A stretch of DNA of 64,000 nucleotides from a virus, in IMG/VR virus record IMGVR_UViG_3300028888_000123, one strand, 5' to 3'. Each line of letters begins with the position of its first letter. Position 1 is the first letter of the stretch. The notes beneath the pieces are model-generated. The model saw only the letters and a program-made list of their open reading frames with translations. It ran no database searches and was not told where the DNA came from. Below, one piece after another: positions 1 through 64,000 of the stretch. Both the position numbers and the translations under genes were made by a program.

Positions 1-78
1 GCTTGAGGGATTTAAGGTGTAGGGCTATGGACTTCCCAGAGTCAATTTAAGTAGCTTGGGACTTGACCTTATAGAATA

Positions 79-105
79 GGCTGGGTTCGATTCCCAGGTA
101 TTTCA
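79..105 (+). tRNA. Degenerate or truncated tRNA 3' half (T-arm plus 3' acceptor strand); no matching 5' half found.
   Basis: CTGGG-TTCGATT-CCCAG T-arm at 81-97 followed by 7 nt and A. Upstream sequence does not fold into D or anticodon arms. Possible tRNA remnant at the window edge. Confidence 0.2.
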
Positions 106-109
106 TTGT

Positions 110-142
110 GAGGAGGGAAAACCCTTAAACAAACCCCTCCTC
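110..142 (+). other. Hairpin with a perfect 8-bp stem GAGGAGGG/CCCTCCTC and a 17-nt loop.
   Basis: Inverted repeat read directly; it lies between the tRNA remnant and the first small ORF. Confidence 0.4.
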
Positions 143-174
143 CTTAACGAGTTTTATATTGTACTTATATACTT

Positions 175-393
175 ATGGCACAATTAAATTTAAACGAAGA
201 GATTAAAAAACTTCGCAAGGATTTACAGCGTGCTAACCTTCTAAATGAAAAATTAGATTTAGAGATTAGGATTGCTAGAGCAGACAGAGGGATAGCAGAA
301 AAGGAGGCTGAGTTTAGGAGACTACAAGACCCAGACGAGCCAACTTGGCCAGACAGTCTTGAACGCTGTTGTAACCCTTGTGTGAATTATTAA
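175..393 (+). CDS. Hypothetical small coiled-coil protein (72 aa).
   Basis: ORF track entry; charged heptad-like sequence; followed by a UUCG-loop hairpin. Confidence 0.4.
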   Translation: MAQLNLNEEIKKLRKDLQRANLLNEKLDLEIRIARADRGIAEKEAEFRRLQDPDEPTWPDSLERCCNPCVNY

Positions 394-465
394 TCTTATG
401 GGAATGCTGGATGCCCAATTTATTTAAAGAACAGTCAATATGTGTGATTGTTTATTTTCATCCTT

Positions 466-482: not shown

Positions 483-487
483 GATGT

Positions 488-559
488 GGGAGAGTAGCTC
501 ACGGCTAGAGTGCTAGCTAGCGAAGGCTAGAGATGTAGGTTCGACTCCTACCTCTCCCA
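488..559 (+). tRNA. tRNA with a non-canonical 8-nt anticodon loop (TAGCGAAG); isotype undetermined.
   Basis: Acceptor GGGAGAG/CTCTCCC, D-stem GCTC/GAGT, T-arm GTAGG-TTCGACT-CCTAC. The anticodon stem CTAGC/GCTAG encloses 8 nt. Confidence 0.55.
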
Positions 560-638
560 ACAATGGTGACGGGACTAGCCAGAAGAAGTCCTATATAACA
601 AGGGGTACTTTGTAATAGCTGCTATCCCTTGTCTATAT

Positions 639-718: not shown

Positions 719-812
719 GGAGAGATGTCAGAGTGGATGAATGTGGCGGCTTGCTAAGCCGTTAACCGGATGAGAAGCCGGTTCGTAGGTTCGAATCCTA
801 CTCTCTCCGCCA
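719..812 (+). tRNA. tRNA-Ser (anticodon GCU), type II with long variable arm, CCA encoded.
   Basis: GGAGAGA...TCTCTCC acceptor, anticodon loop TTGCTAA, variable arm AACCGGATGAGAAGCCGGTT, T-arm GTAGG-TTCGAAT-CCTAC, then G and CCA. Confidence 0.8.
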
Positions 813-813
813 T

Positions 814-890
814 AGGAGATTAGCTCAGATGGTTAGAGCACTTGTCTGATATGCAAGGTGTCACTGGTTCGATTCCAGTATCTCCTACCA
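814..890 (+). tRNA. tRNA-Ile (anticodon GAU), CCA encoded.
   Basis: AGGAGAT/ATCTCCT acceptor, D-stem GCTC/GAGC, anticodon stem CTTGT/GCAAG with loop CTGATAT, T-arm ACTGG-TTCGATT-CCAGT, then A and CCA. Confidence 0.8.
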
Positions 891-893
891 AAT

Positions 894-967
894 GTCCCCA
901 TAGCTCAATTGGATAGAGCGATAGCCTTCTAAGCTATAGGTTCTAGGTTCGATTCCTAGTGGGGATA
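894..967 (+). tRNA. tRNA-Arg (anticodon UCU).
   Basis: GTCCCCA/TGGGGAT acceptor, D-stem GCTC/GAGC, anticodon stem ATAGC/GCTAT with loop CTTCTAA, T-arm CTAGG-TTCGATT-CCTAG. Confidence 0.8.
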
Positions 968-993
968 GGTTTTAGTTGAAAAATATAGAAAAG

Positions 994-3177
994 ATGAGAA
1001 CATTATTGTTATTTAGATGAGCACCTTGATGTGGAAAGTCTACCTTCATAAAGGAGAATTGACTAGAACCATACACTTTATGTGCAGATACTTTTAGAAT
1101 GCTGTATTCTTCTCCTACATTATATGTAAATGGAGAGGTACATATTCCACAGAATGTGAATGCAGTAGCTTGGGATAATCTATTCTCTACCCTAGAATAT
1201 AGAATGCAGAATGGAGAGTTCACAGTTATCGATGCTACAAACTCTAAAACTGTGGAGATGAATAAATATAAGAAACTAGCTGATGAATATAGATATAGAC
1301 TTTATATTGTTGATATGACAGACATCCCTATCGATGAAGTAAAGAGAAGAAATAAACTTAGACCAGAATGGAAATGGGTACCAGAAGAAGCTATAGATAA
1401 TATGTATGCTAGATTCACAACGCAAAAAGTTCCTAGCTGAATTAAGGTTATTAAACCAGAAGAGGTGGTTGACTTATTAAGATGGAGAGCTGTAGAAATT
1501 CCTGATACATATAAAGAGGTAGTACACATAGGAGATATTCATTGATGTTATGAAACATTAATGTCTGCTCTACCTAATGGTATTGAAGAAGATAAGTTCT
1601 ACATATTCCTATGAGATTACTACGAAAGAGGGCCAGAGAATGTAAAATGCCTAGACTTTATGGAAAGCATAATTGATTTACCTAATGTTGTATGTTTGGA
1701 GTGAAATCACGAAACTCATTTATGGACTTATGGTATAGGAAAAATCCCTAGAAGTAAACACTTTATGGGGTATACAGTGAATGAATTAATCGAATGAGGA
1801 TGGGATGCTAAAAGAATGAGAATCTTTATGAAGAAACTTTTGCAGTGCTACTACTATACCTTCAAAGGTAAAACTGTTCTATGTACTCACTGAGGAATAA
1901 GTAATTCTAATTTCGATGAACTATTCCCATTAGGATTAACTTGTATCGCTACAATGGATTTAATTCATTGAGTGGGTAGCTATAATGATACAGCTGAATG
2001 TGATACTAACTTTGCTAAAGGAAACATAATTCAGATACACTGACACAGGAATATAGAAGATAAACAAATAGAATGAATTGCTAACCTAGAATGATGAGTT
2101 GAATGGTGAAAGGAATTGAGAGTTGCTGTGTTGGGTGATGAATTAGAAGTAGTTAAGTATCCATACAAAGATAGAATACCTTCTAAGGAAGAATTCTTCT
2201 GAATAAAACAGGATGTAACCGTTAAACAATTCATTGAAAGCTTGAGAAAGAATAGATATATCAACGAAAAAAATGTGCAGTGAAACATAAGTAGCTTTAA
2301 CTTTACTAGATGAGCATTTAGTAGAAGTCACTGGGATAGAGAAACAGTTAAAGCAAGGGGGCTATTTATAAACACTAACACATATAAAATAGTTGCTAGA
2401 GCCTACAATAAGTTCTTTAATATAGACGAACAAAAGAGTACAATGTTATTTAGTATAGGACAAAATGCTCACTTCCCTATCGTTGGGTACAAGAAATATA
2501 ACGGATATCTATGAATAATAGGATACGATGAAGAAAGCGATGAGTTAGTATTCACAAGTAAATCTGAAGTGGGTTGACCTCACGCTCAACGACTTAAAGA
2601 AATAGTTATAGAGAAAGGTATCAACTTAGAAAAAGTAAAAGACTATTTAAAGGAGAACCTTTGCTCGTTAGTCTTTGAGGTTATAGACCCTGTAAATGAT
2701 GCACATATTATTAAGTATACTGAAAGAGATGTTATATTGTTAGACTGTGTAAAGAATACTATCAACTTTGAGAAACTAGACTACGATAGTTTATTAAAGC
2801 TATGAGAACTACTTTGATTCACAGTAAAAGAAAAGTTAGTAGAGTTAAAAGATATGGTGGAGTTGAGAGAATGTATTGACGAATTACTAAATCCTAATTC
2901 AGAGTACAATACTTGAACTCCTATTGAATGAATGGTGTTTGTTGACAAAGATGACTTTATGTTTAAACAGAAGTGAGAGTATTATCAGCAATGGAAGAAA
3001 CTTAGAGCTTTGATTTGAGTAGTAGCAAGATGACAAAACTTTGTTCATACTTGAATGTTAACAAACCCAGAGATGAATGAGTTCTATTGATGGTTAAAGG
3101 AACAGACTTTAACTTGAGAAGAAAACATTATAGAGCTTAGAGATAAGTTCTATGCTAACAAAGCTATGATTAGCTAA
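994..3177 (+). CDS. pnkp: Trifunctional RNA repair enzyme with kinase, phosphatase and ligase domains. The N-terminal domain is a P-loop polynucleotide kinase, the central domain a lambda-phosphatase-type metallophosphoesterase, and the C-terminal domain an Rnl-type RNA ligase. About 727 aa with TGA read as Gly.
   Basis: P-loop FRGAPGCGKST spans two TGA codons (1018-1050). GDIHGCY (lambda PPase GDLHGCY) and LEGNHE span further TGA codons. Ligase motifs KxNG (VGYKKYNGY), FEVID, EGMVFVD and FKQKG are present. Only TGA interrupts the frame, up to TAA at 3175. Confidence 0.75.
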
Positions 3178-3306
3178 CATAGGGAGTCGTCCACCTCGGC
3201 ACGGACGGATAATGTGGGGTATCACACTGTAAATATTAGCTTTAGTATTAGTAATGCGAAGTACAAACATTATGAGTAGTAAGGTTAATATGATATATCT
3301 CCCTTC

Positions 3307-3377
3307 GGCAGGGTAGCTCAGGGGCAGAGCAATGCCGTTTAGGGCATATGTCGTGGGTTCGAGTCCCACCCTTGTCG
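3307..3377 (+). tRNA. tRNA with a 6-nt anticodon loop (GTTTAG) between a perfect 5-bp stem ATGCC/GGCAT. The central TTT/TTA suggests a Lys(UUU) derivative or UUA; isotype undetermined.
   Basis: Acceptor GGCAGGG/CCTTGTC (two GU pairs), TA, D-arm GCTC-AGGGGCA-GAGC, T-arm GTGGG-TTCGAGT-CCCAC. Confidence 0.5.
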
Positions 3378-3384
3378 AGGGGAG

Positions 3385-3472
3385 TTTGAAAAATGTGTAA
3401 AATGGGTATCAAAATACCTTGAAAAATGTGTAAAATGTATACAAATTTATATTGAAAAATGTGAAACTAATG
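3385..3472 (+). repeat. Three tandem copies (period about 33 bp) of TTGAAAAATGTGTAAAATG; promoter-like (TTGAAA ... TAAAAT).
   Basis: Copies at 3385-3404, 3418-3437 and 3451-3472 (degenerate), directly upstream of the first early small gene. Confidence 0.6.
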
Positions 3473-3865
3473 GACAAGCTTATTAGATTTATAAATGAAT
3501 ATGGGCACACAAGTAGTTGTTGACCATTCGAAACTTATAGAATAGAGCCAGCGACAGACTGGATTTCTTCATATTTAGTATTGAGCCGAGATGATAATTG
3601 AGAGTGAGATTGGAAAGATTGGCATTTGCCAGTTCCAAGATTAATTAGTAAAGAATATGGTTTCATAAAACGACTTGTTGATAATGATAAGATAGACAAG
3701 AAAAAAATAGATACAAGGCTGGTTAAAAGCGTGGAAAGTCATTACGATGTAGACTGATGGTGGGTTGAAAATTCATACGAGGATTATTCAGATATAGATA
3801 CTTTGCTAATGCTACTATCAATATCAGATACACCTATTGATTTATTATGTAACCTGTTAAAATAA
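3470..3865 (+). CDS. Hypothetical small protein, family A; paralog of 6755..7102.
   Basis: Read through 4 TGA codons. Shares GFIKRLVDNDKIDK and LLMLLSISDTPIDLL motifs with the 6755 gene. Confidence 0.45.
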
Positions 3866-3866
3866 A

Positions 3867-4076
3867 ATGAGAGTGGCAACGTTAATTAAAAAGTTAGAAA
3901 ATTTTCCAAAAGAGTGGGAAGTATTCTATAAAGATGGAGAAGACTTAATAGAGATACTCTGATGTAATCAGGGTATTGAATATTATGAAGAGTGAGACGA
4001 AAGAAGAAAGCCAGTAATAGACGAAGAATGAAATAAGAGTTATCCATATTGAAGAAGGGTGGTTACTTTAAGTTAG
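3867..4076 (+). CDS. Hypothetical small protein (about 69 aa).
   Basis: ATG 1 nt after the previous stop; frame open with TGA as Gly. Confidence 0.35.
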
Positions 4077-4101
4077 TTTTATATCTTAAGTAAAAATCTG
4101 A

Positions 4102-4344
4102 ATGACTGATAAAGAAAAGAAAGAACTGCTTGATATAATTGAAACACAAAAAATATATCTAAAAGCAGATAAGGAATTTATTGAGGGACAAAGAAATTAT
4201 ATAAAATCATTAGAGCAGAAATTAGAGAAAGACAAATTTGGTTTGCGATATGCTACCTTTGTATATGGTGGGTTAATATGATGATGTATTTATATATTAG
4301 AGAAATCAATACAATGATGGATAGAAATTATTAGTTGGTTTTAA
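4102..4344 (+). CDS. Hypothetical small protein (80 aa), lysine-rich coiled-coil N-terminus.
   Basis: Frame verified codon by codon to TAA 4342-4344, which is the TAA of the first TAATCAG unit. Confidence 0.45.
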
Positions 4345-4373
4345 TCAGATTTATTTACTTAATTTAATAACCT

Positions 4374-4601
4374 ATGGAAACTATAAAGGAAGAAAGAGAA
4401 AGCTGAATGGAACGAAAAGCACATAATTATTCCTTAGAGTATAAGAATTGGAGATTTACGCTAACCGAAAGCGAGAGATGAGATTGTTTCTTTGTAAATA
4501 TATACTACAAAGATAATAGCTGTTCAATGTTTGTACATACAGGTACAAAAACAGCAGAAGAAGCTAAAGAGCGAGTTGAAGATTTTATCAAAACAGAATT
4601 A
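4374..4601 (+). CDS. Hypothetical small protein (75 aa).
   Basis: ATG lies in the conserved CCTATGG context after the intergenic unit; codons counted to TAA 4599-4601. Confidence 0.45.
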
Positions 4602-4634
4602 AAATAATCAGATTTATATTATTACTTTATACCT

Positions 4635-5021
4635 ATGGGAAACAAATTAGAACAGCTATTGAATAGCTTGATAGAGAAAGGGTATATACCATTTAATATA
4701 CCTTGTATTACAAATGTTAGTTTTTTAAGAAGATTATGGATAACATCACATCAGAATGACAGAGATTATAAATTTGATTTCTCTTTAAGGGACTTAGTAA
4801 GTAAAGAAAGCTGACTATGGCAATTCGTGTGTGAGAATGGATTATTGAATGTAAACAAAAAATATGAATGGGAATATTGGACACAAAGTTATAAACAAGA
4901 TTGAGAAGAATATACACACGAATTTAGTAGATGGTGTGAGAAATACCGACTAATAGAAAGTGCCTTATGTGATGAAGATAAGTTAGAGGAGTTTTTACTC
5001 AATTCAATTAAGTTAGACTAA
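4635..5021 (+). CDS. Hypothetical small protein (128 aa).
   Basis: CCTATGG start; three TGA codons read as Gly; stop TAA 5019-5021 lies inside the next TAATCAG unit. Confidence 0.45.
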
Positions 5022-5051
5022 TCAGACTTTTATATTATTTACCTAAAGGAA

Positions 5052-5252
5052 ATGGGAAAAGAAAAATCTGAATGAAAATATAGGATAATAGAAGTAATAG
5101 ATACTGCTATAAATCAGAGAGTATATATTCCACAAAAGAAGAATTGGCTTTGAATTTGGAGAGATATAAGCTATTGAAAATTTCTTTTAGAAAGTGCAGA
5201 AGATGATATTAGAAAAGATAAATGAGAGTTTAAGATAGTTAAATATATGTAA
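5052..5252 (+). CDS. Hypothetical small protein (66 aa).
   Basis: Start after the intergenic unit; stop TAA is part of TAATCAG. Confidence 0.4.
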
Positions 5253-5280
5253 TCAGACTTTTATATTTTATTTATAACCT

Positions 5281-5481
5281 ATGTATCGTATTCTTAAAAC
5301 ACCTAATTGAAAATATAAAGTACAGAAAAAAGATTGGCTTATAGTAAGTTATCGAAGAACTATTGAATATTATGACCCAGAAGCAGAAGCACGTTTAACT
5401 AGATTATTTGACACAAAGAAAGAAGCAGGGGAACGAATAGATAGAGATAGGGGATGAAAAATAATTAAAGAATATTACTAA
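5281..5481 (+). CDS. Hypothetical small protein (66 aa).
   Basis: CCTATG start; stop in TAATCAG. Confidence 0.4.
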
Positions 5482-5513
5482 TCAGACTTTTATATTTATA
5501 ATTTATTATAACT

Positions 5514-5768
5514 ATGGAGAAAAAACTATCAACTTCATCTGCGGAAATATATTGTTGAAAGCCTATGAAAGAATGGCTTGATGAGTGGGAATGACACTAT
5601 ATAACAGTGTGAGAACTTATAGATGAGCTATGAAAATTTGACAAAGACTTAAAAGTTTTAGTTAGGCGTACTTCTGAATTCACCGATGAAGCAGATGCTA
5701 ACCCATATATTGATTTGATGCGTTGAAGATTAAGAGGGACTAATGAAGATATCTTGCTTATCAATTAA
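5514..5768 (+). CDS. Hypothetical small protein (84 aa).
   Basis: Start after the intergenic unit; frame open with TGA as Gly. Confidence 0.4.
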
Positions 5769-5786
5769 TATTTTATATTATTAGCT

Positions 5787-5984
5787 ATGGAGATGTGAAA
5801 AATAGAAATCTATGAGGACTGTAAACAGATAAGTCAGTTTGAATATCTACGACCTATTATATTTGTCCTCATTATTATAATAACTTTAGTGATGTGATAT
5901 TTATGTAGTATAGCATATGAGCAACACGTTTGAGAGCCAACCAAAGATAGTTGTATAGAATACTTTACTAAATATTCAAAGTAA
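5787..5984 (+). CDS. Small membrane protein (65 aa, one TM segment).
   Basis: Hydrophobic stretch IIFVLIIIITLVM; stop in TAATCAG. Confidence 0.4.
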
Positions 5985-6007
5985 TCAGACTTTTATATTA
6001 TTTACCT

Positions 6008-6253
6008 ATGGAGAGAATGACATTTTATATACCACCTGTATTCTTATTTGGGAATAATGCTAATAGAGTTCCTCACGATGAAGAAAAGAAATCTGAATAT
6101 AAGACAGCAGCTGAAACTGAAATTAAAGTAGAGAATTGGATGGCAAAAAGAATAGCTGAATTAGAAGAAGAAAATAAAAAGCTGAAAGAAGAAAATGAGA
6201 AACTTAGAATTGATAGAGAGTTTGAAAAATGAAATACAATATTTGGTATGTAA
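6008..6253 (+). CDS. Hypothetical coiled-coil small protein (81 aa).
   Basis: ORF track 6008..6232 extended through one TGA to the TAA inside TAATCAG. Confidence 0.45.
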
Positions 6254-6283
6254 TCAGACTTTTATATTTTAATTTTATAACCT

Positions 6284-6475
6284 ATGATAGATACAAGTAG
6301 TTTAGATAAAGTATGAGAATATATAGAACAATTAGAAGAATGATGAAAGCAAGCTAGAGGAAGGGTAATAGAGCTTGTAGATAAACTTAATAAGATTAAA
6401 GACTTATTCAATAAACGAGATATGACTTGAAGGGATGAATTTTTAGATGAGTTAAGAGATTTGCTTAGAGATTAA
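6284..6475 (+). CDS. Hypothetical small protein (63 aa).
   Basis: CCTATG start; stop in TAATCAG. Confidence 0.4.
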
Positions 6476-6502
6476 TCAGACTTTTATATTTATTATTCAC
6501 AA

Positions 6503-6616
6503 ATGGAAACAATAATAAAAATCTGACTTATAATATGGTGTATTATAATATTGCCACCGATGATAATAGGCATAATTAAAGCGGTTATAGAATTCTATAA
6601 AGATTTATTGAAGTAA
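6503..6616 (+). CDS. Tiny membrane peptide (37 aa).
   Basis: Hydrophobic IIWCIIILPPMIIGII; bounded by two intergenic units. Confidence 0.3.
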
Positions 6617-6644
6617 TCAGATTTATCTATTAAACTTTTAAGTT

Positions 6645-6755
6645 ATGGACGACGATACAATTTGATGTATATGATGTATAGGTTGCTTATGGCTTCTCTG
6701 AATTATATCAGGAAATACAGCAATGATATTAGTTTTACTTGCTATTATATTATAA
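6645..6755 (+). CDS. Tiny Cys/Gly-rich membrane peptide (36 aa).
   Basis: Triple CIG repeat read through TGA; the stop overlaps the next start (TAATG). Confidence 0.3.
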
Positions 6756-7102
6756 TGGAAAAACTTATAGAGTTATTGAATGAGTATGAAAAGAAAGCAG
6801 TAGTACACTGGTATGAGTGGTATTGACAAGATGTTTTAATGTGCAGATATATAAAAGATGGTTTTGAATTTTATACTGATGAAGCAACTACGATAGCTAT
6901 TTCTAAATATTACTGATTTATTAAATGGTTAGTAGAGAATGATAAGATAGACAAAGATAAATTATACAAATCTGAATATAAGCCATACTTTTGGAATAGA
7001 ACAACAAATGCTTTTAGCTGATTTTGGGCAGAGAATATCTTACTAATGCTACTTGCTATATCAGATACACCTATTGAAGATTTAATTAGTTATTTAAGAT
7101 AA
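6755..7102 (+). CDS. Hypothetical protein, family A; paralog of 3470..3865.
   Basis: Shared motifs GFIKWLVENDKIDKDK and LLMLLAISDTPIEDL. Confidence 0.45.
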
Positions 7103-8250: not shown

Positions 8251-9045
8251 ATGAAAAACTTTATGGTTTGATGTTGGAGTATCATCGTTTTACTCCTAGT
8301 TATCTGCGGTTTTAACTCTTGGTTTGTGGTTGAACCTGGATACAACTGATTTACTGTTACACTAGGAAAGGTTAACAGTACGGTTTACACGGATGGGTTA
8401 CATTTTAAAACTCCATTCATTACTAAGTCTGTAAAATATAATATACAGACACAAAAAGCTGAATGAGTTACTGAAGCTAGCTCAAAAGATTTACAGACTG
8501 TTGATGCTACGATTGTAGTGAATTACAAATTCAAAGAAAGTGAGGTAGTTAACCTATACAAAAATGTAGGTAGGGAAGAAAAGGTACAAGAAAAAGTTCT
8601 AGAACCAGCTATCCAAGAAGTATTTAAATCTGTTGTAGCTAAATTTTCTGCCGAACAATTAATCACAGAAAGAAGTGCTGTATCTAAAGAAATTGAAGAT
8701 GCCTTAAACAAGAAGTTAGATGCTTATGGAATTCAAATCCAATCATTTAATATTGTAAACTTCAACTTCTCTAAATCATTCAACGATGCAATTGAAGCTA
8801 AGGTAACAGCTGAACAGAATGCACTAGCTGAAAAGAATAAACTAGAACAGGTGAAGTATGAAGCTGAGCAGAAAGTTGTTGCAGCTGAAGCACAAGCTAA
8901 GGCTATTGAAATTCAAGCTAAAGCTATTCAAAACCAATGAGGTGCTGAATATGTAAAGTTAAAATGGATTGAAAGATGGGATGGTAAATTACCTGTAACT
9001 ATGGCTTGAGAAGATAGCTCATTTATAATGATGATGGATAAATAA
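8251..9045 (+). CDS. SPFH/band-7 (prohibitin/HflC-like) membrane protein (264 aa).
   Basis: N-terminal TM segment followed by an SPFH-like domain and an Ala/Gln/Glu-rich coiled coil (AEQNALAEKNKLEQVKYEAEQKVVAAEAQAKAIEIQAKAIQNQ). Confidence 0.55.
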
Positions 9046-9468: not shown

Positions 9469-9861
9469 ATGAAACGATTTAAGCCATTCACACCTAGTAT
9501 AGATAAGAAATCTAAATGGTACGATTATCGAGAAAATAGAATGAGAACCTATGCAAAAATAAATTGAAAGTCTGTCTACTTAAAAGAGAAGTATGGTAGA
9601 GTAGATGCTTCTGTAGAAAATTGAGGAACTCATTTATTTATGGAGACTATGCTAGATTATGAAACTATGTCAGAGGGGCATTGTATGTATTGTAATGCTA
9701 ATGCAAAGCAATATTGGACACACGAAGACAGTTGGGTTATTCACCTCTGTCTTCCCTGTCTGATAGGGGATAAAATTACTATTTTACTTGAAAAGATTAT
9801 CACTCGATGGAGAAAGAGAAACGACAGAAGTGGTTGATATACCTCATTTACATCTGCATAG
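9469..9861 (+). CDS. Hypothetical protein with an HNH/zinc-ribbon-like motif (130 aa).
   Basis: CMYCNANAKQYWTHEDSWVIHLCLPC motif; ORF track 9640..9837 is in the same frame. Confidence 0.4.
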
Positions 9862-13881: not shown

Positions 13882-14454
13882 ATGCCACGGTGCCCTTGAT
13901 GTCAAAAGAATAAAGACATAGACTCTTTTTATAAAGATAATAGTAAGAATAGAGGATTCAGATTTCCCTGTAAAGATTGTTTTAAATTAAAACGAGAGGA
14001 CCAAAAAAAGAATAAAACCTGACGTTTTAGTGCAGAAGCAAAAGCAAAAAAGAGCGCTTACAATAAAATGCGATACCAAGAGAATATTGAATCTGAAAAA
14101 GAGCGTTGTCGTATTAGGGCAAATAGGGTTTATAACGAAACTAAATATACTATAAAAACAAGATTAAAAGTAGTATATAATGATGCGAAACGTAGGTGTA
14201 CAAACCCAAAGGATAAAGCATATGTTCGCTATTGATGACGTGGCATAAAATTTTTACGAGATTCTTTCGATGAATTTTATGCAGATATGAGCGAAGGATA
14301 TATCCAACATATTAATGAATATGGAATGGGGACTAAATATACCCAGCTAGATAGGATAGATAATGATTGAAATTATTGTAAAGAAAACTGTAGGCGAATT
14401 ACTGCGAAAGAAAACAATCACCGGAATCGTAAAAAACAATTTTATCACAAATAA
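13882..14454 (+). CDS. HNH homing-type endonuclease (HNH_3 family) with an N-terminal zinc ribbon (190 aa).
   Basis: QLDRIDNDGNYCKENCRRITAKENNHRN matches the HNH_3 signature (DRIDNdgnY..NCRw.T...N..N). N-terminal CPGC...CKDC. Confidence 0.6.
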
Positions 14455-29253: not shown

Positions 29254-29286
29254 ATTGGATTAAAGGAAAGGATAAAAGGCTGATAT

Positions 29287-38506: not shown

Positions 38507-38550
38507 AATTATATTGTTTTTAAATTAAAAGTTTAAATGACAAAATAAAC

Positions 38551-38583
38551 CCCTAGATATATTTTTAAGAAATACATCTAGGG
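38551..38583. terminator. Hairpin CCCTAGAT-(17 nt)-ATCTAGGG.
   Basis: 8-bp stem read directly; lies between two fibre genes. Confidence 0.45.
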
Positions 38584-39752: not shown

Positions 39753-39811
39753 TAATTAAATTTGGTTAAGGGATAAAAATTAACTTAATGGGTTAATAAC
39801 TATATATTTAT

Positions 39812-53000: not shown

Positions 53001-56000
53001 CTGCAGCAGAAAGACTTTCGGCTCAAAGTTTTCTTTCTAGTCAAGTCTGCTTTAAGAAATAAGCTACTCACTGTTGTGGAATCGTGAAGAGCTGTCAAGG
53101 ATATGACATTGCGATTCTGAATAAGGTATTTGAGCCATTAGCAAATGATAATATTGTATTAGCCCGTCTTCACCATCAATCATTTGTCAATGTAAATCAA
53201 GTTAACCCTTGTAGTATTTTCTTGAAATCTTCATCATTATATGCGCTTCCAAATATAATATTAAACTGTTCTCTGCTAATTCAACTCAATTTAGTGACAT
53301 AATCTCTATATCAAGTCAACCATCAAGAAGTTCTATCTTCTGAAGTACGTACAAATTCTCTTACATAATATTTACTTCTTGGGTTACCGAATTTAAAGAA
53401 CTTAAATATTTGATTTTGTTCTATACCAGATAATATTCAATAAATTCATTTAATATCCTGTATGTCATTTACTACCTCTCATAAATTAAAAAAAGCTCTA
53501 TTTATATCTTCTCTAGTCGTACATCACAAAGCTCAATCTGCGCTACCTAAATGATGCTCAAGAGTTTTAAAATATCTTGCCATATTTTTAGCTAAGTCTT
53601 CAGCTCTAGTAGTAGGCTTAACAGCTATAATCTGTGGTAAAGACATAGGGTAATATCTACTATAAGCTTCTTTAACTTTAGCCCATCTATCCATTATTTC
53701 TTGTGGTCTCCACATTCACGCTGTCACTCTACCTTTTAATCATATCAAGTAATCTTTAATTCATCTTCCAATCTCTTCATTCAGTCAATAAGTAGCATCA
53801 GCTGCATCGCTTAACATATTTGTTAATGAGTATCTTCTAAGCTTTTGTCTTACATCCATTAAAATTGAGGACATAAGAGCTCTTTCTCATTCTGTGATTA
53901 ATTGAACTCAATCCATCATAGCTTGTAGAGTTCAGTTATAACTATTGATTATATTCTCTCTATATTGTTTGTTTTGTAATTCTAGATTTCTTTCTTCTTT
54001 TTCTGTCAGCTTTTTAGTTGGGTCTGGTAAAGAAAGTCAAACTTTATCAGCTTCCTCTACAAAAATATTCTCTTCATTAAATATAGTTTCTTTCCAAGAG
54101 TCAATAGACTCATCTCATAGCTGTCTTAAGCTCTTCTCGTCTCAGTTCTCTAATTGGATTATAATTCTATCCTGTAAAACATCCATATCTGGAATATCTA
54201 GGTTTCTTATGTCTATTTGAGTTTGTTGATATTTTTGTTTTAATAATGTTTCAACTTTTTTCTTTACATTAGGCATTTCTATGCCTCACTCTACTAATAC
54301 TCATCAAGTTGGCAAGTCTCTTAAATATGTATATGGGGTGAAGGCGTTTATATATGTAGCCCTCATAAAATTAGTAATAGCTTTCTTGTCTTTAGATTTA
54401 GTCACTCATACTTTCTCGAATCTTTCAATAGCTTTTGTGTCTTTAATCCATTTATCTACTAATCACTCTAGCTCTCACTTAGTGATATATCCTTGTCAAC
54501 CTTCTCTGAAAAAAGATTTAATACTTCAGAAAATTCATTCTTTGATTTCTTTATCTATATTAGATGTGTTATCGAAGTTTTTTAATATCTTAACATCCTT
54601 TAAAGCATTCCCATACAAAGCTCTAGGTAATCAATTCTCGGCTATTCTAAAATTCTCAAAGAAATTATATTTAGCCAATATAGGAGATTGCTTATACATT
54701 AAGTTCGTTACTATGTTTGCATTAGTATTTAGTGCTTTAGCTGATTCTATGTAAGACAATAAGGCATAAACTTGTTTATTAGATAGACTATTTATACCTT
54801 CTGTTCATAAAGCTTTTACCGATTCTAATCATTTAATATTACTTGGAAGAGTTTGTAGATTACTTATTAATTCTTGCCTTGCATCCACTACTACATAATC
54901 TTCTCAAACCTTTTTAATAGTAGCTCAGTTATCAACTAATTTTTGTTTCCTAGCATTTATTTTTGCTTCTTTTATTTCATCTTCTCATTTAAGTCATTTC
55001 CCTATATCTTTATCAATATCGTTCTCTTTAGCTATTCTTTTTAATGATTTTTTATAATTATCCAATATTCTATTCTTTATTCATTTCATTTCTTCCATTG
55101 CCTTACTTGCACTCATAGAATCAACATATATAGGTAATGCATATTTGCTACCTAATAATGATTGTCTATCTGCTGGAGTAAGTAATCTTCAGTATTTAGA
55201 TAATACTATTTCCTGCTCAAACATATCAAGGGCATAAGAAGCTTGAAGTTTTATTTGTTGTGCTTTTTGAAATGTTAACGTTCAGTCTTGAAATCATTTT
55301 CTGAATTCCTCAATATATCTATCTAATATATCTGATAATATTTTATTTTCTTGTCCTGAAGGTATCATTCATTTCTTTGCTCAATCAATAGCGACTAAAG
55401 CTGAATATGTATCAGGTAAGAATACATTCTCCGTTTCTCTATATACCGCACGTTCTGCATTGTTTATGCTGTACTGCCTTCATTTATAAAGAGCGTCCTC
55501 ATAATTAAATTTAATATCCTGAGGTAATAAATTATCTATTATAGAATGTATATTATCTGTAGTGAATGGAATATTATTTTTGTAAAATAACGATTGAATA
55601 AATGGAGTGTTTAATAACTCTATGGTATTATTTCAATCAGCTCATCAAGTCAGATAAATATAGATAAAGTCTCTTACATTAGCTAATGGCAGAGAGTATC
55701 AAGCATTCACTAAGTTATTAGCAAACGCAACTGAGATTGTATTAAATAAGTCGTCATTGATAAGCTTACAAAATTCATTCAATTCTTTATCAGTTATTGT
55801 TTGATTAGGAAAGAACATATCCTTATATACCGTAGCAAATGTTCTATTTTGAAACATAGATTGAATGTCGGTCATTCTCATAGTTTCAGCACTTCATCAA
55901 CTAGACAATGAAATTAATTTTCATTTTGCCTGTAAATAATCTATCTCATTTTCTGCTGTTCTGAAATCTATATAAGCATCTCTAATCTCTGAAAGGTTAT

Positions 56001-58855
56001 TAGAATTCTTTATTGCATCTTCACTTACAACTCCTCAAATGCTTTTATTTACTTCTGAGGCTAATACATCATCTGATAAATCTGCTATTCTATCAATCTC
56101 ATTTTGAACATTAATCATTTGTTTCTCGAATTTTCCAGAAACAACCATAGACAATGAAATTCTTTCATCTACCATTTGCCATAAATTTCATCTGTCTGAC
56201 ATATTCTGAATTACTTTCACAGGTATTCAAGTTTTTTCTGATATAACATTATTAATTCTATCTAATGTATTCTTATCAATAGTTGTAACAACTTTTCAAT
56301 CTACTACTTTCTTTTCGATTATTCACAATAACTCTCAATAATATTTACGAGCTGCATCGTCTATGTCGTTGTTGTAGTCTATTAACGCCTGGGCTTCATC
56401 TCACGCTTCCTTTTCTCATTTTGACAATGGAGATAATTGACTTTCCTTTAGGGCAATATATACTGTATCACCTTTAGCTCACACATTATTAATTACAACT
56501 CAATCATACTTATCTCATCATTTTAGCTGTTTATTTAATTCTTTGACATAGTTCGAAAAGTCATCTGCAGACATTTTCTTTCACTCATAGAAAATACTAT
56601 TTATCGTACTCTTTTTAGCACTAACTTCAAATGGGTGCTTAATTATTAGATATGTTCATTCTTCTCAATCTACCTTTTCAGAAGAATAGGTTAAGCTTTC
56701 TGTAGTTCAATTTTTATTAGATTTATATACAACAAGAGGAGTTCAACCAGATGTAGAAACGACAGTATCTATCTCAGTTCATTCACCAGTAGTTATTTCA
56801 TACATTTCTTTTCTCATCCTCTCTGTTGGAATACTTTCTCAAAGAGATTTAATTGAAGCTGTTCAAGCTATTTCGTCAAACATATCATCATTCTCTGTCT
56901 TGAATATTAAACTTCTTCACTCCATATCAAATCTTCAAGACATTGCTCAGCGAGGATATATTACTGTAATTTTGTCTTCGTCTTTCCGTCATTCAGTTTC
57001 ATTCACTTTCTTTAATATATTGTCGAGCTCTTTATTATCTCTCCATCTCGAATCAGAAACTATTAAATATCAACCTTTGTATTTTTCTCTAAGAGTTCAT
57101 ATCAAATCTTCTGAGTCAGTTAAGTCTTCTATCTCTGTACTAACAGTCATCTTATTTCTATTAGCACGCAAATCCATTAAATCAGCTTTAGCTCTAGTAT
57201 TCTCATCTTGAATATATAGTCATTTCCTAAAGTTAAAGAATGCTTTAGGTCTATCTGCTAATGTTTGCCCGGTAATTGTATCTAAAGCGATTTCCTCTGG
57301 TTTAGATATATTTGCATTTAATTTTGCCTTTTTATAAAGAGCTATAATCTTATTCGCTGCAGCTTTATTATTTCATAGTAGATATTGGGTAGCGATGTTC
57401 AATACAGTACCGCTGTCATATTCTCATCTCTCTAAAAGTTTTATAATATTTCTATCTCAAGTAGCAGTATAAATTAATTGGATAACGTCAGTTGGTAGCA
57501 TCTTTACTCAAGCAATTTCAATTACGTCAGGTAATTCTCAATCTCAAATTGCCTGTGCAAAGTCTTTTAATCAATTATATAATTCTTTTCAATTGGTTCA
57601 AGATACATTCAATCATAACCTTCTAGCCCTATTATATAACGACGAAGCTATAACAACATTAGAGAATGTAGCTCACTGTTCTACAAACTGCATAGTTCTA
57701 ATTAATGACCCAAGTTTCTCTATATCATTATAATTTAATTTCTTTCTGCTGGCTAAGTAGTTTAGTTTTTTTGCGTAAGCATCTCTTAATAATTCAGCAT
57801 CGCTTCAAAACATAAGCTGCTTTGTGTTAGTGAATGCCTTAGAAAGTAAGATACTTAAATCATCTATCTTCTCTATCTGGTCTAAAGTTAATGGTCAAGT
57901 ATAATCTTTTAAATTTTTAGCTGTTCCTGAATCACGAAAAAATTTTATTATTTTATCCTCAGTAGTTCTGTTAGTTCAATCTGCTCAAGCGGCGATTATT
58001 TCTCTAGCCATAACATACTGAACCCAAGTATCCATAGCATCTTGCCCATCATTCTCTGCTATTTTTACAATAGTTTGCCATTCATTATCAATAGCAGAAT
58101 ATCAAGATGGAGCTTTTAATTCATTCTTTACCATTTCAGCATTGCTCCATTCTCACGTTACTTTATCTGTTTGTTGCCATCAATGTTTTTTATCCTTGGC
58201 TCAAAGTTTTCTTTTCTTTTTAGCCTCTTTTGCAGCATCTCTGTCTTTTGCTTTTTGTACATTATCTAAGGCTTTATTATAAAGCTTTTTATATTCTTTC
58301 ATAAACTCATCTTGAGTTATTTCTTTATTAATATATTGCTTTTTTAAAGCCTGCACAGCAGACGTTTGTCACAAATCTGTATATTGTTTAAGGCTATAAT
58401 TAGTGGCCATAAATGTATCTAATTTTTGTTTTATTTCTTTTACCACATCTGCAGGAGAGCCTGATGTACTTCACCAAGCTCTTGCGATATCTTCATAGTC
58501 TACTGGATTAGCGTTTTTTACTTTATTCAATAAAGTCATTCACTCTGCTAAGCCCCCACCCATTTTAGTTATTTGTCTAGCTAATTCGTCGTATGCTTCG
58601 GCTCCAAATCTTCCTCATAATATCTGAGCTTGCACTATTCATCTAATCATAATATCTGCAGACTCAGCCTTTAATTCTAACTTGTGTGCATCCATTCAAG
58701 TTAAAGCGTCTACTCATTCGCCGGTTCTCCTTGAGCGCTCAAGCATACTATTTCTTAACCTAGATAATTCTGCTAATTCTTTTGCTAAGTCATCATCTCA
58801 TCAGATTATTCACGTAGCGATAATATTAGCTAATTTATTACAGTCTATCTTTGCC
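50038..58855 (-). CDS. Giant ORF (about 2939 aa if continuous) of unknown function; possibly an internal virion or ejection-type protein.
   Basis: With TGA as Gly I found no TAA or TAG from ATG 58853-58855 to TAG 50038-50040. ORF track pieces 53533..53715, 52138..52320, 55699..55881, 49... fit this frame. Continuity over 8.8 kb is not fully verified. Confidence 0.35.
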
Positions 58856-58879
58856 ATAATGTATAATTGCTAAAATAAA

Positions 58880-61861
58880 TTAACATACGATTTCTTTTAC
58901 TTTATTAACTACATTCCCGTATGCTCAAGAGTCCACTACTGCGTCAACAGTAGCATCTTTAATTTTTTTATTTGGAGTGGTGATTTCTTTTAATTTACTT
59001 AAAGCATTTCTTGCGTCTTCAGCCTCAGATATTTGAATTCACAAAGAAAATAAATCTATATTCTCTGCTTTCATTCATAGCTTTTCAAGTCATTTCTCAG
59101 TTAGATGCTTCTTTCAATTTTCATCTGCTACTGTAAAATATTCTCATTTTGCATCGTCAGCCACATCAGAAAATCATTCAATCTTCTTTAAATTAGCTAT
59201 ATCGTCTGGGCTAAATCATTGTTCAACTTTAGCAGCAATACCTCAGTCTATTGTATTTAATTGTTTTTTAATGTTGTCGCTTCAAGTCTCCCAAACAACA
59301 GTAGCATCCGTTCAATTCTTTAATTTAATCTTAGATACATAAGGTCAGAACGAAACTTGTCAAGGTATCCTTCATAAATATTTTATAATATCAGCTGGAT
59401 TAGTTAATTCGTTTTGAATTAATACATTCATCCTCCTGGCAATATCTGAATCTTGTCTGTAGAATTCATTAATATATTGTTGCAATAATTTCTTTGTCCA
59501 TTCAGATGCGTCTTGTTTTTTATCTTGAGGGAGTTCATTATAGGCACGTTTAGCCACTTCTTGAATTTTACTAAAGTTATTACTTAGCTCTTTTAAGTCT
59601 CTAACACTAATATTTGAATCAGCCTTCTGTAATAGTCTAACTACATTGTCCCTAGCTTCCTTAGAAGAACCCATATAGTCTAATACATCCCACACTCATC
59701 AATTTCACATCGCACCTTTATTAGCTAATTTTCTAATTCACTGCACAATCTGAGCATCTGTAAATAAAGGTAATATAGCATTAAATCATAATGTTCATAA
59801 CGCAGACAATACAAACGATTGTGTTGAATATGCTTCAGTATCGAATGCACTCCATTGTGCATCCATTGCCTGGTCTATCACAGATTGAGTTACAGTCCAA
59901 TCAACTAATTCTCAAATTGCTTTTCGTGTTGGATTAATTTTACTTGTAGCTTTAGATGCAGCTAATAATCAATCTATTCATTTAACCACACCTCAAGTTC
60001 AATACTTAACTGCTTGATTAAGTCTTTGAAACATAGACATTCACTCAGCAGCCTTTAAAGCCTGATATGCTCTTTTAGTTTTTGTTAATGCTCATACAGC
60101 TCAAACTCATCAAGTAGCAACTCATAATAAATAATCTCGTCCAAGATTTCAAGCAATCTCTGGGACATATTCTACTCACTTAAGCCAGTATTTTTGTATT
60201 GTCCTAGACGAACTAGATTTGTCTGTTTCTATTAGCCTTCATATAGTGAAGTCTTGGTCTAAATACGCAGACGTAGACCAAGCAGATTTATTTCAAGATA
60301 TTTCATCTTGAAACTCTCATCGATTTCGTGGAGTCATAGCGTGATATGTTAGTGTACCTAAATCTCAAACTAACATAGCAGCTTGTTGTCAGATTTCTCA
60401 TAGCCTATATCAGAATCATTCTCACCGATGCTGTGCCCATTCCCAAGCGTTTCATATTGCTGAACCCCTTTCTTTTTCGTACGCATATAACGTGTTATTG
60501 GCCATTTGTTGAAATACATCTATAGTAGAATCTCATTTCCACCATCATCATTCTCAACTAAGTTTTTTTACTTCTGAAGATAAAACATCTCATAAAGTTT
60601 GTCATCATTCAAAAGAGTCAAGAGTTTCAGAAATTTCTCAATTTTCGTCTACGTTTTTAGCAGATTGTTTTAAATAATTATTAATTCATTTAGCAGCAGC
60701 AACTTCCATTTGTCTAAACCTCTCAGCGGTATCGATAACTAACGCTTCTCAAGAAGTCCATTCGGTTTTCGGTTTTGAACGAACAACTTTTTCAAGAGCA
60801 TATATAGGAGCGGCAATTGTATATATTCTTGTAGCTTGGTCACGAGCAGAATCCCATCAGCTAGACATAAAATCTGCCTGTACTCTTCAATCTTTTATAT
60901 ATTCCTCAGAAATATTATTTACATCCTTTAATGCTTCATTCATAAAACGAGAAACATATTCGCTCTGCATTGAAGAAGATAAATCAATAGTAGGTTCTTC
61001 TTGGTCAAGTCAATATGATTGATAAATTTGCTGTGCATTATTTTGATTTTCTCATTGTGCATTTACATATGTAAGCCACTCGTCTAATGTAGGTTCATAA
61101 TTTCATTTCTTTGTATTATTCTGAGCAAGCCTATCTAACTGTTCTTGTGTATATTGGTCTTTTCTTCTATGGACATTTCATAAAAATCAATCAGTATAAT
61201 AGTCGTCACTATTTAATCTAAACATTCACCTCGTATTCATATAGAAGTTTAGCAATGCTTGATTTATATCTTGCTGAGTCGAATTAGGGTCACTCGCTAC
61301 ATTATTATATTTTTGCCATTCATTTTGGAACATTAAACCTTCTCATCATCTATCTCCTAATTCAAGGAATAGCATATTATGATTATCTGGGTTATATCAT
61401 AATGCTACGTGTTTTTCTGCCTCCTGTGCTTCAGCATCTGCTTTATATGAATCTACTATCTTATTCGCAAATTTACTAATATTATCGCTCCATCTATTTA
61501 ATGTATCAAAGAAATTCTCATTCTCTTTTTCTTTTTCTTTTTCTATAGCTTTTTCTGTGCCTCAAGAAAGTTCAGTTTCATTAGGGTTTAAAAATCATCA
61601 TTGTGGGATGTCTGGGGCATAATCTTGTGCATTTTCTCTATTAATTTGACTTGCCACGTCTGATAAACTTTTATTAGCAAAACTACTCGTAAGTGTATTA
61701 TTACGAGTAGCAGTGTTAATGTTAGTATTATTTATAGTTCAAGTCTGTATTTGCTCATTTAATGTTTGAGGTTTTGCTTCTGTATCATCATCACTAAACC
61801 AACCACTTACGGTGTTTTTCACTCCGTGCCAAATATTTTTTAAACTATCTAGTAATGCCAT
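58880..61861 (-). CDS. Large protein (about 993 aa); portal candidate by position (second gene after TerL).
   Basis: ATG (CAT) at 61859-61861. ORF track 59372..59695 is internal. Confidence 0.3.
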
Positions 61862-61893
61862 AAAAATTTAGTTCCTGAAATAAATACTATGTT

Positions 61894-62192
61894 TATTCAA
61901 CGTCGTAATTATCTTCTCTTTGTGCTTCAATTTTCTCCTTCTCATATTCTAATTCTTCTTGGTTTTGTCTGAGAATTCTCCCATCGATTACTGGCACAAA
62001 TGCAATTCAGGCTGCCTTGTCTAACAAAGCCTCTGCGTCTGATTTGGTAAGATTACAATGTTCCAAATAATAAACATAATATCATTCATTATCTCTCCCG
62101 AGTATTGTCAACAATTCTCAATCGTCATCTCTAATTAAAGCATATTTTTTTGTTAATGCTTTTAAGATTTCTTGTTTTTTTTCTATCAACAT
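61894..62192 (-). CDS. Hypothetical small protein (99 aa), first gene of the late transcription unit.
   Basis: The ATG lies 3 nt downstream of the late promoter-like element. Confidence 0.4.
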
Positions 62193-62195
62193 TTT

Positions 62196-62244
62196 CCTAT
62201 ATATAGATTATAAAATTTAAGGATTTTTTTATAACTTTTTAAAA
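62196..62244 (-). promoter_or_regulatory. Late promoter-like element, copy 2.
   Basis: CCTATATATAGATTATAAAATTTAAGGATTTTTTTATAACTTTTTAAAA, nearly identical to 47445-47493. Confidence 0.6.
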
Positions 62245-63999
62245 CAATCAACTTTTTAAATTATTTAAGAAGTCTTCAGTTGTGTCTTCTTGCTTCTGAT
62301 ATCTCTCTGCCCAAAATTCTTCAGCTAATTGTTGATTTGATTTTTGTGGCCCCATTTTTATTACGTCCTTTGTAGCAAGCTGGTCGTGAAACCAAGCAAA
62401 GTAAAGCACAAGCATCATTCCGGAAACCTGGTCATCGTGAAGTTTTTTCTCTCACCTAGCTGATGCTTTCCATTTCTTGAAGTGAGAAAGTTCCTCTACA
62501 AGTCATCATTCTCCATAACAATTTGGGTCGATATAGATTAAGTTAGAATCAAAGAAGCTACTCTTAATCATTTCGATACACCATTGCTTACCTACATTAT
62601 GTCTAGCTCAAGGCTGATATGTAATATTACCTGTCCATTTAATAAGCATATCACAAGGCATTCAAAGCATTCATAACTCTCTAGCAGCCGCCCATCATCT
62701 CGAAGCATCAAGGACTAAATAAACAGGTTTTGTTGTGTTCTTCAAGTCCTGAATTACTTGTTTCATTTTAGCGAACCTTTCATTACTTTCTTTTGCTAGG
62801 TTATATGTCTCTTTGATATAGTATTTTCAGTCTTTAGCTCATAATATACAAAGTCAAGGGTTATCGTACGTATCAGCTTCATCATATCCAACTACCCAAT
62901 AATCGCAGTCGCTAGGACATTGAAGCTGTACTCAGTCAATATTAAATACTGTCTGGTCTGTAGAATATTCTCCATAATATTCAGCAAGCATATAATCATA
63001 ACCTCTAGCATTTAATACTCTAGTTACCTGAGCTTGCTTCTGCTCCTCCGTAAGAAACTCTACATCATCCATTGTGAAGTGTAAAGCTACTTCTGGCCTA
63101 CGTTGAATAAACTCAGCTCTCATTTTTTCGAAGTCTCAATTCTTTATTTTTCTTTCATAATCTTTTCTACTCTTACAAATATCTAGTCAATATTTAATCC
63201 ATATATCGTGAATCAATACATCAATAGGCTCATAGTCTCTTTGTGTCTTATATGCATTAAGCCGTCATTGATAGAAATGTCAAGCTTGTGTATTAGGTCA
63301 AATTGTTGAAATAAGAGTGACTAATGAGTCTGCTGTTGACATAGCTGTACCTACATAGTCCCAGTCAAGATAGTCGGCCTCATCTCAAACGAACTTTCTT
63401 GTACGTCTTGACCTAGTAGGGTCATTCTGATTAGTTGTAACATATTCAAGTTTTCTCTGTTTATCTCCGTCGAGGATGTATAAACCTGTATTATCAGGCA
63501 ACTTGTTACAAAAACTCGGCAAATCAATAAGATTATTAAGCATCTGTTGAGAGTAAACCATATATGGTGCGTTCTGTTTTTGCGATAGTCCCATATAGAG
63601 AACTGAAAATTCTTGAATACGTTCATTACTGTCTGTTATCTCTTTAAGTAAATATCCCGCACTATCTCAGTTGATATATAATGATTTACCTCATCATCTT
63701 GGACCAATTACGTAGGTCACTCATCAACTAAGTAGCCATACCATCATCTGCCAATGCTGTAGACAGAAGCCATTAAATGTCCTTCAGGTATCAGCAAGCA
63801 TAGCTTCAAAGAGTTTAGGTTTATACACTCAAAATAAGTTTGTTCTATATTTCTGTCATTGAACTTCATAGTCAATTGAGAAATCCTCTCATATATCCCA
63901 GTCGATATATTCCATCCTTTGTAAGTCTTTTTTATTTCTTCATTTAGGAATTTTAATTGGGGTAACTCTAAACTGTCATAAGATTATATCTTTCATCAT
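62239..63999 (-). CDS. terL: Terminase large subunit (about 586 aa).
   Basis: Walker A VIGPRGGGKS, Walker B LYILDGD ... VGDEADY, and a C-terminal nuclease region LIYIDP...KLHDD. ORF tracks 62932..63123 and 63385..63594 are internal. The ATG lies at 63997-63999, so the gene may begin just beyond the window. Confidence 0.6.
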
Positions 64000-64000
64000 A

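Follow-up and report, generated by a model that had tools for sequence, protein, structure and literature searches.

A tailed phage genome in which TGA encodes glycine and CGA and CGG are synonymous with TGG

The closest described counterparts of the genetic code considered here are found in phages predicted to infect Absconditabacteria. Liu, Jaffe, Chen, Bor and Banfield (mBio 2023; PMC10746230) reported 50 such phages longer than 20 kb, 44 of which were clearly alternatively coded, with code 25 being used by most predicted Absconditabacteria phages and by few Gracilibacteria phages. Genes in that study were called with table 25 only, and CGA, CGG and arginine go unmentioned (PMC10746230). 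For the bacteria themselves, Codetta predicted that both CGA and CGG are read as tryptophan in Absconditabacteria, and that some Gracilibacteria read CGG alone in this way (Shulgina and Eddy, eLife 2021; PMC8629427), and a 2026 paper takes the Absconditabacteria reassignment as accepted (PMC13092985). Two phage assemblies read AGG as methionine together with their Bacilli hosts (PMC8629427), and gut phages, crAss-like and others, read TAG as glutamine or TGA as tryptophan in standard-code hosts (bioRxiv 10.1101/2021.08.26.457843). Here we analyse 64,000 bp of viral DNA (IMG/VR record IMGVR_UViG_3300028888_000123), referred to below as the window, by which we mean this whole stretch. It is a portion of a tailed phage genome with a guanine-cytosine (GC) content of 32.9%, in which TGA encodes glycine and not tryptophan, and in which CGA and CGG are synonymous with TGG.

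The window resembles the code-25 phages described in 2023 in its dense in-frame TGA codons, its gain in coding density when these are read as sense, its TAA and TAG stops and its low GC content, and, like them, it appears to share the code of its host without any code switch. With the Absconditabacteria code (PMC8629427) it shares all three reassignments, a low GC content (33%), arginine encoded mainly by AGA, a preference for CGA over CGG and, in a sibling phage, a tRNA(UCA) with G1:C72, C2:G71, G3:C70 and U73. It differs in that the earlier work concerned bacterial genomes and this is a virus, in that codon exchange provides evidence independent of Pfam columns, and in that tRNA(UCG) and tRNA(CCG) were not found in the phage. 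The phages that read AGG as methionine likewise mirror a sense-codon change of the host and rely on host tRNAs, although the codon, the amino acid and the host phylum are others and the sense change is joined here by a stop change. Stop-recoded gut phages share in-frame canonical stops and, in some members, a phage-borne tRNA for the recoded codon; they are recoded chiefly in late genes and depart from the code of the host, whereas in the window no gene escapes recoding, the capsid gene being the least affected, and the residue inserted is glycine. A sense-codon change in a phage that mirrors its host therefore has one precedent, AGG as methionine (PMC8629427), and the literature searched held no report of CGA or CGG as tryptophan in a phage.

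The original prediction for this DNA, made from the sequence alone, was that the whole window uses table 25 and belongs to a virus or prophage of a host group with very few described phages. The last point was out of date given the 50 phages predicted in 2023 (PMC10746230), and since code-25 phages of these hosts were published then, the central claim is correct but not new. Every statement that could be checked against the sequence held.

TGA as a glycine codon

Under the standard code (table 11) the longest start-to-stop open reading frame (ORF) of the window has 326 aa, just within the limit of 330 aa given in the original prediction; it lies at 40225-41205 (+), antisense to a tail-fibre gene, and the longest stop-to-stop stretch is 368 aa. 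When TGA is read as sense, coverage by ORFs of at least 80 aa rises from 15.2% to 88.3%, so that the two codes are far from equal in coding density, and 61 such ORFs appear, the longest of 2939, 1693 and 993 aa. Making TAG or TAA a sense codon across the whole window restored no long genes, and the 61 ORFs end in TAA (48) or TAG (13), which agrees with the expectation that both still terminate. In-frame TGA occurs 897 times in these ORFs and is found in each of them, early and late.

TGA makes up 4.76% of in-frame codons and GGN 2.72%, and their sum of 7.47% is a normal glycine content in which TGA is the main codon (64% of glycine codons). TGG by itself amounts to 1.30% of codons, a normal tryptophan content.

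The positions of TGA in conserved motifs agree with this reading, as had been predicted for the gene of an RNA-repair enzyme. Its kinase P-loop (Walker A) reads F-R-TGA-A-P-TGA-C-G-K-S-T, with TGA at 1018-1020 and 1027-1029, and the phosphatase motifs read GDIH-TGA-CY (TGA at 1543-1545), L-TGA-DYYERG (1612-1614) and E-TGA-NHE, that is GNHE (1702-1704). In all homologue searches TGA was masked as X to avoid circularity. Under this masking lambda phosphatase (1g5b) aligns glycine at 3/3 phosphatase TGA codons. In-frame TGA falls on invariant glycines of the Walker A, GDxHG and GNHE motifs. Searched against 5.8 billion proteins, the RNA-repair enzyme had 17 closely related, recoded matches; a further 103 homologues were 42-47% identical, and these include entries named from the standard-code bacteria Lachnoclostridium and Bacteroidales. 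Across these 103 homologues glycine was the majority residue at 18 of the 30 TGA columns and tryptophan at none (0/30), and 54% of the residues aligned at TGA columns were glycine against a background of 5.3%. A Codetta-style log-likelihood over 28 columns gave +36.7 nats for glycine, -36.1 for alanine and -83.1 for tryptophan. The tabulation of residues at TGA that had been proposed, run for this enzyme, therefore came out as mostly glycine.

We also built a codon exchange matrix from the DNA of 13 non-redundant relatives, covering 42 window genes and 20,553 aligned codon pairs, with TGA, CGA and CGG masked in both partners for alignment. TGA was kept 833 times; in 226 exchanges it stood opposite GGN, and in 2 opposite TGG. 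Read-through of TAG or TAA, selenocysteine, pseudogenes and sequencing error were excluded as explanations by the codon frequency, the 833 conserved TGA pairs and the glycine alignments.

CGA and CGG in place of TGG

Table 25 accounts for glycine at TGA and for the TAA and TAG stops of the window. It is incomplete, however, since CGA and CGG behave as tryptophan codons. The window contains 53 CGA and 10 CGG codons, about 20% of its tryptophan codons, and under table 25 arginine would stand at these 63 probable tryptophan positions.

In the exchange matrix the commonest partners of TGG are CGA and CGG. In its final form CGA/CGG had TGG as partner in 29 exchanges, one of the other four arginine codons in 1 and lysine codons in 2, whereas the other arginine codons exchanged with TGG once and with lysine codons 101 times (Fisher p = 7e-25); for true arginine codons this is one TGG partner in about 850 aligned arginine-codon pairs. 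A matrix from 7 loci gave 16 exchanges of CGA with TGG and one with AGA, and 7 exchanges of CGG with TGG and none with an arginine codon; with only 10 CGG codons in the window, support for CGG is weaker than for CGA.

The same exchange can be followed within the window between paralogues. In the pair of small ORFs listed in Table 1, FIK-CGA-LVDNDKID (CGA at 3671-3673) matches FIK-TGG-LVENDKID (TGG at 6926-6928), and upstream in the same two ORFs Y-GGN-F stands opposite Y-TGA-F. In the paralogous tail genes 30471-31226 and 32397-33425, FYQ-CGA-TGA-NNY lies opposite YYQ-TGG-GGT-NNY (CGA at 31005-31007, followed directly by TGA; TGG at 32748-32750, GGT at 32745-32747), and CGG 32577 and CGA 30846 share one paralogous position. 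Among 86 homologues of the tail protein 30471-31226, all of them recoded and stored as table-4 translations, TGA columns alternate between W and G, and TGG and CGA columns between W and R.

Individual genes behave accordingly. The HNH endonuclease has no TGG but 4 CGA and 2 CGG codons (13888, 13993, 14071, 14257, 14395 and 14422), and reads ...NCR-CGA-ITAKENN; translating these as W improved the score over R in 6/6 top PHROG families (+1.2 to +13.8 bits). Paired PHROG scoring of ORF 22174-23220 also preferred W, by +8.2 and +4.7 bits. The sole CGA of the RNA-repair gene (2590-2592) falls on a column with 52 Tyr and 40 Trp in standard-code homologues.

Use of these codons varies. In the distant relative L018, CGA plus CGG roughly equal TGG in several genes (for example 12 against 10), so that the reassignment looks further advanced there. 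Within the window the CGA/CGG share of tryptophan codons is higher in early (+) genes (0.29) than in late (-) genes (0.16), and the TGA share of glycine codons shows the opposite trend (0.56 early, 0.68 late).

Phage genes, tRNA genes and the capsid gene

The element is a tailed phage: terminase, portal and a capsid protein of HK97 fold are all present (Table 1), as expected of a tailed dsDNA phage (Caudoviricetes). Relatives lie on contigs of 81.0-82.4 kb from several independent assemblies, and judged from these the window is about three quarters of a genome of approximately 82 kb.

Table 1. Features of the window. Strand is given as + or -, and a dot marks a feature without strand.
Feature	Coordinates	Strand	Basis
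Phage genome portion; TGA = Gly, CGA/CGG = Trp, TAA/TAG stops	1-64000	.	Coding coverage, codon usage, exchange matrix
tRNA-like gene, 8-nt anticodon loop (UAGCGAAG), no U33	487-561	+	ARAGORN; Rfam tRNA, 53.7 bits
tRNA-Ser(GCU)	719-812	+	ARAGORN, Rfam
tRNA-Ile(GAU)	814-890	+	ARAGORN, Rfam
tRNA-Arg(UCU)	893-968	+	ARAGORN, Rfam
RNA-repair enzyme, 727 aa, 30 TGA, 1 CGA	994-3177	+	Pfam AAA_33, Metallophos, RNA_lig_T4_1
tRNA-like gene, 6-nt anticodon loop (GUUUAG)	3306-3378	+	ARAGORN, Rfam, relatives
Paralogous small ORFs (3470-3865 and 6665-7102)	3470-7102	+	CGA/TGG and GGN/TGA matching motifs
SPFH/Band 7 family protein	8251-9045	+	Pfam PF01145, E = 3e-31
HNH endonuclease	13882-14454	+	PHROG families
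RusA-like Holliday junction resolvase	18052-18558	+	phrog_34, E = 1.8e-8
Holin	26818-27324	-	Pfam Phage_holin_4_1, E = 1.6e-5
C39-like peptidase, possibly endolysin	27347-28273	-	Peptidase_C39_2, E = 8e-4 (weak)
Group I intron, in small ORF starting 29052	28758-29010	-	Rfam RF00028, 81.4 bits against a threshold of 50
Tail and tail-fibre genes	29286-41399	-	phrog_5302 tail protein, E = 6e-32; Phage_fiber_rpt, Phage_tail_C
Major capsid protein, HK97 fold, 497 aa	44788-46281	-	AlphaFold model of orthologue P0296 and fold search
Portal protein	47538-49574	-	phrog_156 portal, E = 4.5e-6; phrog_332, E = 2.2e-8
Giant protein, 2939 aa, 172 TGA	50038-58857	-	ORF
Giant protein, 993 aa, 68 TGA	58880-61861	-	ORF
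Large terminase (TerL), cut by window end, 586 of 716 aa	62239-63999	-	AlphaFold model of family member P0208 and fold search

Neither profiles nor PDB sequences matched the terminase and capsid candidates, which were identified by predicted fold alone, with AlphaFold models built from family alignments. The model of P0208 (predicted local distance difference test score, pLDDT, 69.8) matches the large terminases of D6E, T4 (gp17) and HK97 (E = 4.5e-12 to 4e-11), and the protein has 716 aa in relatives. Its Walker A motif reads GPR-TGA-TGA-GKS (TGA at 63694-63696 and 63691-63693) and its Walker B motif KFV-TGA-DEAD (63385-63387). The model of P0296 (pLDDT 68.6), a protein 58% identical to the window capsid protein, matches capsid proteins of Vibrio phage VP1 (E = 3.6e-15) and phicrAss001 (E = 1.2e-10). 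The RNA-repair enzyme combines a P-loop kinase, a metallophosphatase and a T4-type RNA ligase domain.

Between the terminase and portal genes lie two giant proteins, both without a Pfam or PHROG match and both conserved in relatives L005 and L007; the larger keeps its size in relatives (2852-2939 aa), its other large orthologues being cut fragments only. By position and size they recall the virion-packaged giants of N4-like and crAss-like podophages. Large proteins of the window, whether X-masked or corrected, mostly lacked Pfam and PHROG matches. Database relatives (P0001-P0017 and P0121-P0295) are table-4 translated, with 5-11% Trp and 1-5% Gly, which probably accounts for the failure of Pfam and PHROG profiles on the majority of them. 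There was no relative in 50,697 GenBank phage records at the protein or DNA level, and scanning IMG/VR with peptides or an alignment of the capsid protein detected none.

No tRNA(UCA), tRNA(UCG) or tRNA(CCG) was found in the window, and none of its tRNAs reads TGA, CGA or CGG. The original prediction had proposed a search for tRNA-Gly(UCA) in linked contigs; one was found, in a sibling phage and not in a host contig. This sibling, L015, whose RNA-repair protein is 91% identical, has a tRNA with anticodon UCA at 9584-9657 that carries the identity elements by which Shulgina and Eddy recognised glycine tRNAs (G1:C72, C2:G71, G3:C70, U73) and is flanked by tRNA-Gln and tRNA-Ile in an array matching window positions 719-968. 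Another sibling, L016, encodes tRNA-Gly(UCC) and tRNA-Trp(CCA). The tRNA-like gene with the 8-nt loop has only its acceptor and T arms in common with a 91-nt tRNA-like gene in L016 (9584-9674), and may be either the remnant of a tRNA or a decoder of an unusual sort. The one with the 6-nt loop is kept in L016 (12313-12385, loop AUUUAG) and has a normal tRNA-Leu(UAG) of L001 as its homologue; as two assemblies share it, an assembly error is excluded. Read as U33-UUA-G37, the 6-nt loop would pair with UAA, the main stop codon.

Near the lysis genes, the group I intron interrupts a small ORF, where a putative in-frame exon junction after U28999 would yield a 72-aa product. Its motif GY-x-RPV-xx-YN-x-GK-xx-EF resembles the NrdD glycyl-radical C-terminus, at a sub-threshold E of 0.11 against Pfam NRDD (positions 541-562), and a PDB comparison of the spliced mini-ORF gave no support for an NrdD-like reading. 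The putative radical glycine would be a TGA codon. The next gene (28385-28600, -) encodes a 71-aa CxxC thioredoxin/glutaredoxin-like protein, and in the distant relative L010 a group I intron also stands beside lysis genes. A tRNA(UCA) gene split by the intron was considered and rejected, the flanks being protein-coding and not tRNA halves.

The capsid gene departs from the rest of the genome in its codon use. It has 3 TGA against 40 GGN codons and no CGA or CGG, a TGA share of glycine codons of 0.07 compared with 0.65 in the rest of the window (Fisher p = 3e-15). Capsid orthologues in L017 (1064-2593, 56-58% identity) and L018 (10001-11545, 31%) have shares of 0.05 and 0.00 and likewise contain no CGA or CGG, whereas neighbouring genes in these two relatives are mostly at 0.4-0.86, a single 170-aa ORF in L018 also being at 0. 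GC and GC at third codon positions (GC3) of the capsid gene are ordinary. We infer that the most highly expressed gene is under selection to avoid the reassigned codons, which suggests that these codons are translated less efficiently or less accurately.

Host, decoding and competing explanations

The best overall explanation, to which we assign a probability of about 0.88, is a tailed phage of a natively recoded host in which UGA encodes glycine and CGA and CGG encode tryptophan. Several points weigh against it. The comparison of TGA with standard-code proteins covers one protein family and lambda phosphatase, with synonymous exchange among recoded relatives elsewhere. Standard-code support for CGA/CGG as tryptophan is thin. 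Among three RNA-repair orthologues with 5 CGA codons, 4 lie opposite TGG, TTC or CGA of the other orthologues, and by the residues of the standard-code homologue set 2 of these (in one shared column) are on Tyr/Trp, 1 is on Phe and 1, at aa 128, is on a column rich in Arg and Gln. The fifth, at aa 118 of L003, is the only CGA seen on a conserved Arg position; the window and L001 read AGA there. Paired R-versus-W scoring on Pfam was uninformative, and one weak case favoured R. On the host side, there is no CRISPR (clustered regularly interspaced short palindromic repeat) spacer match and no integration site that would link phage and host directly, the metagenome-assembled genome (MAG) evidence described below consists of one binned contig, 5.9 kb in length, and two related contigs were assigned to a RefSeq 'Methanobrevibacter sp.' MAG. 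The latter, L013 and L014 (NZ_JAUNXX010000081.1 and NZ_JAUNXX010000112.1), are short and carry TerL at 79-83% identity; most likely this low-GC phage DNA was mis-binned by its composition.

The L003 codon, the uninformative Pfam scoring and the scarcity of CGG (10 codons) would all fit a code that is exactly table 25, in which CGA and CGG are arginine or ambiguous and the exchanges with TGG are real Trp/Arg replacements. We consider this unlikely, since CGA/CGG pair 29 times with TGG but once with the other arginine codons, although the latter are six-fold commoner, and true arginine codons pair with TGG only once in the approximately 850 pairs. Moreover, TGG to CGA takes two base changes, yet CGA is the commonest partner of TGG; the HNH ORF, with no TGG and 6 CGA/CGG, fits its families better with W, and the 86 tail-protein homologues show only W/R alternation at tryptophan columns. 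That TGA might instead encode tryptophan (table 4), as in Mycoplasma-type hosts or TGA-recoded gut phages, has a negligible probability. Its one apparent support, W at TGA positions in close relatives, is an annotation artefact, because public pipelines used table 4 for all of them. Such a code would give 6.1% Trp and 2.7% Gly, it would put tryptophan on the invariant glycines of Walker A, GDxHG and GNHE, and it is contradicted by 0/30 tryptophan-majority columns, by a log-likelihood of -83 against +37 for glycine and by 2 exchanges of TGA with TGG against 226 with GGN; alignment and exchange data therefore refute it, as the original prediction had held from the motifs. If, on the other hand, the code were that of the phage, imposed late on a standard-code host by a suppressor tRNA, then the tRNA-Gly(UCA) of the sibling phage, the somewhat higher late TGA share (0.68 against 0.56) and the roughly 18 kb of genome outside the window would be in its favour. 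Such a switch is very improbable, as all ORFs of 80 aa or more contain TGA, those of the early region too, and no gene would be expressible before it; the window has no tRNA(UCA), a phage tRNA presumably could not impose tryptophan at CGA/CGG against the host Arg-tRNA without ambiguity, and avoidance of TGA by the capsid, the most abundant late protein, is the opposite of the expected pattern.

Since TGA occurs in each early gene and no phage alone could force a sense-codon change on a standard-code cell, we infer that the host is natively recoded. An Absconditabacteria lineage is most likely. A GTDB scan found a TerL-bearing contig (81% identity) binned in a 'Candidatus Absconditabacterales' MAG, which together with the codon tests and the sibling tRNA-Gly(UCA) supports the predicted Absconditabacteria/Gracilibacteria-group host. 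A Gracilibacteria (BD1-5) lineage is improbable: UGA is glycine in both groups and CGG is predicted as tryptophan in some Gracilibacteria, but CGA, the commoner codon here (53 against 10), is predicted as tryptophan in Absconditabacteria only (PMC8629427), and the one binned relative falls on the Absconditabacterales side. A prophage or chromosomal region of a recoded bacterium, which the original prediction had allowed for and which a tRNA array at one window end might suggest, has only a slight chance. Neither an integrase nor a bacterial housekeeping gene turned up when the ORFs of at least 130 aa, about 38 of the 61, were scanned against Pfam and PHROG, the tRNA array belongs to the phage in relatives, several independent assemblies yield contigs of 81.0-82.4 kb, and the gene content forms continuous phage modules.

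For a tailed phage of a natively recoded host, the following course can be proposed. A lytic-type phage would replicate in a bacterium where UGA stands for glycine, CGA/CGG stand for tryptophan and only UAA and UAG end translation, and the phage genome, with TGA in every gene, early and late, would be adapted to that code. Host tRNA-Gly(UCA) and tRNA-Trp(UCG/CCG) would do the decoding, and the host would presumably be without release factor 2; no release factor was found in the ORFs scanned, with about 18 kb of the genome, from TerL to the tRNA array, lying outside the window. As the window itself encodes no decoder for the reassigned codons and the sibling phage adds its own tRNA-Gly(UCA), decoding probably relies on host tRNAs, supplemented in some phages.

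The original prediction is therefore supported, although incomplete on the code and overstated on novelty. Database proteins of this family carry tryptophan at hundreds of glycine positions, and table 25 would still leave arginine at probable tryptophan positions; correct annotation needs TGA as glycine plus CGA/CGG as tryptophan. The change in meaning of CGA and CGG in Absconditabacteria has so far been a matter of Pfam-column statistics, for which synonymous exchange in phages offers independent support. Whether this is the first virus-side evidence for CGA/CGG as tryptophan, so that a code with three changed codons is shared by a virus, and whether the reassigned codons are costly, we regard as an evenly balanced proposition. 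If it is true, phage genomes would be independent reporters of the completeness and efficiency of reassignment in uncultured hosts, and the cost in translation would bear on how codon reassignments become fixed.

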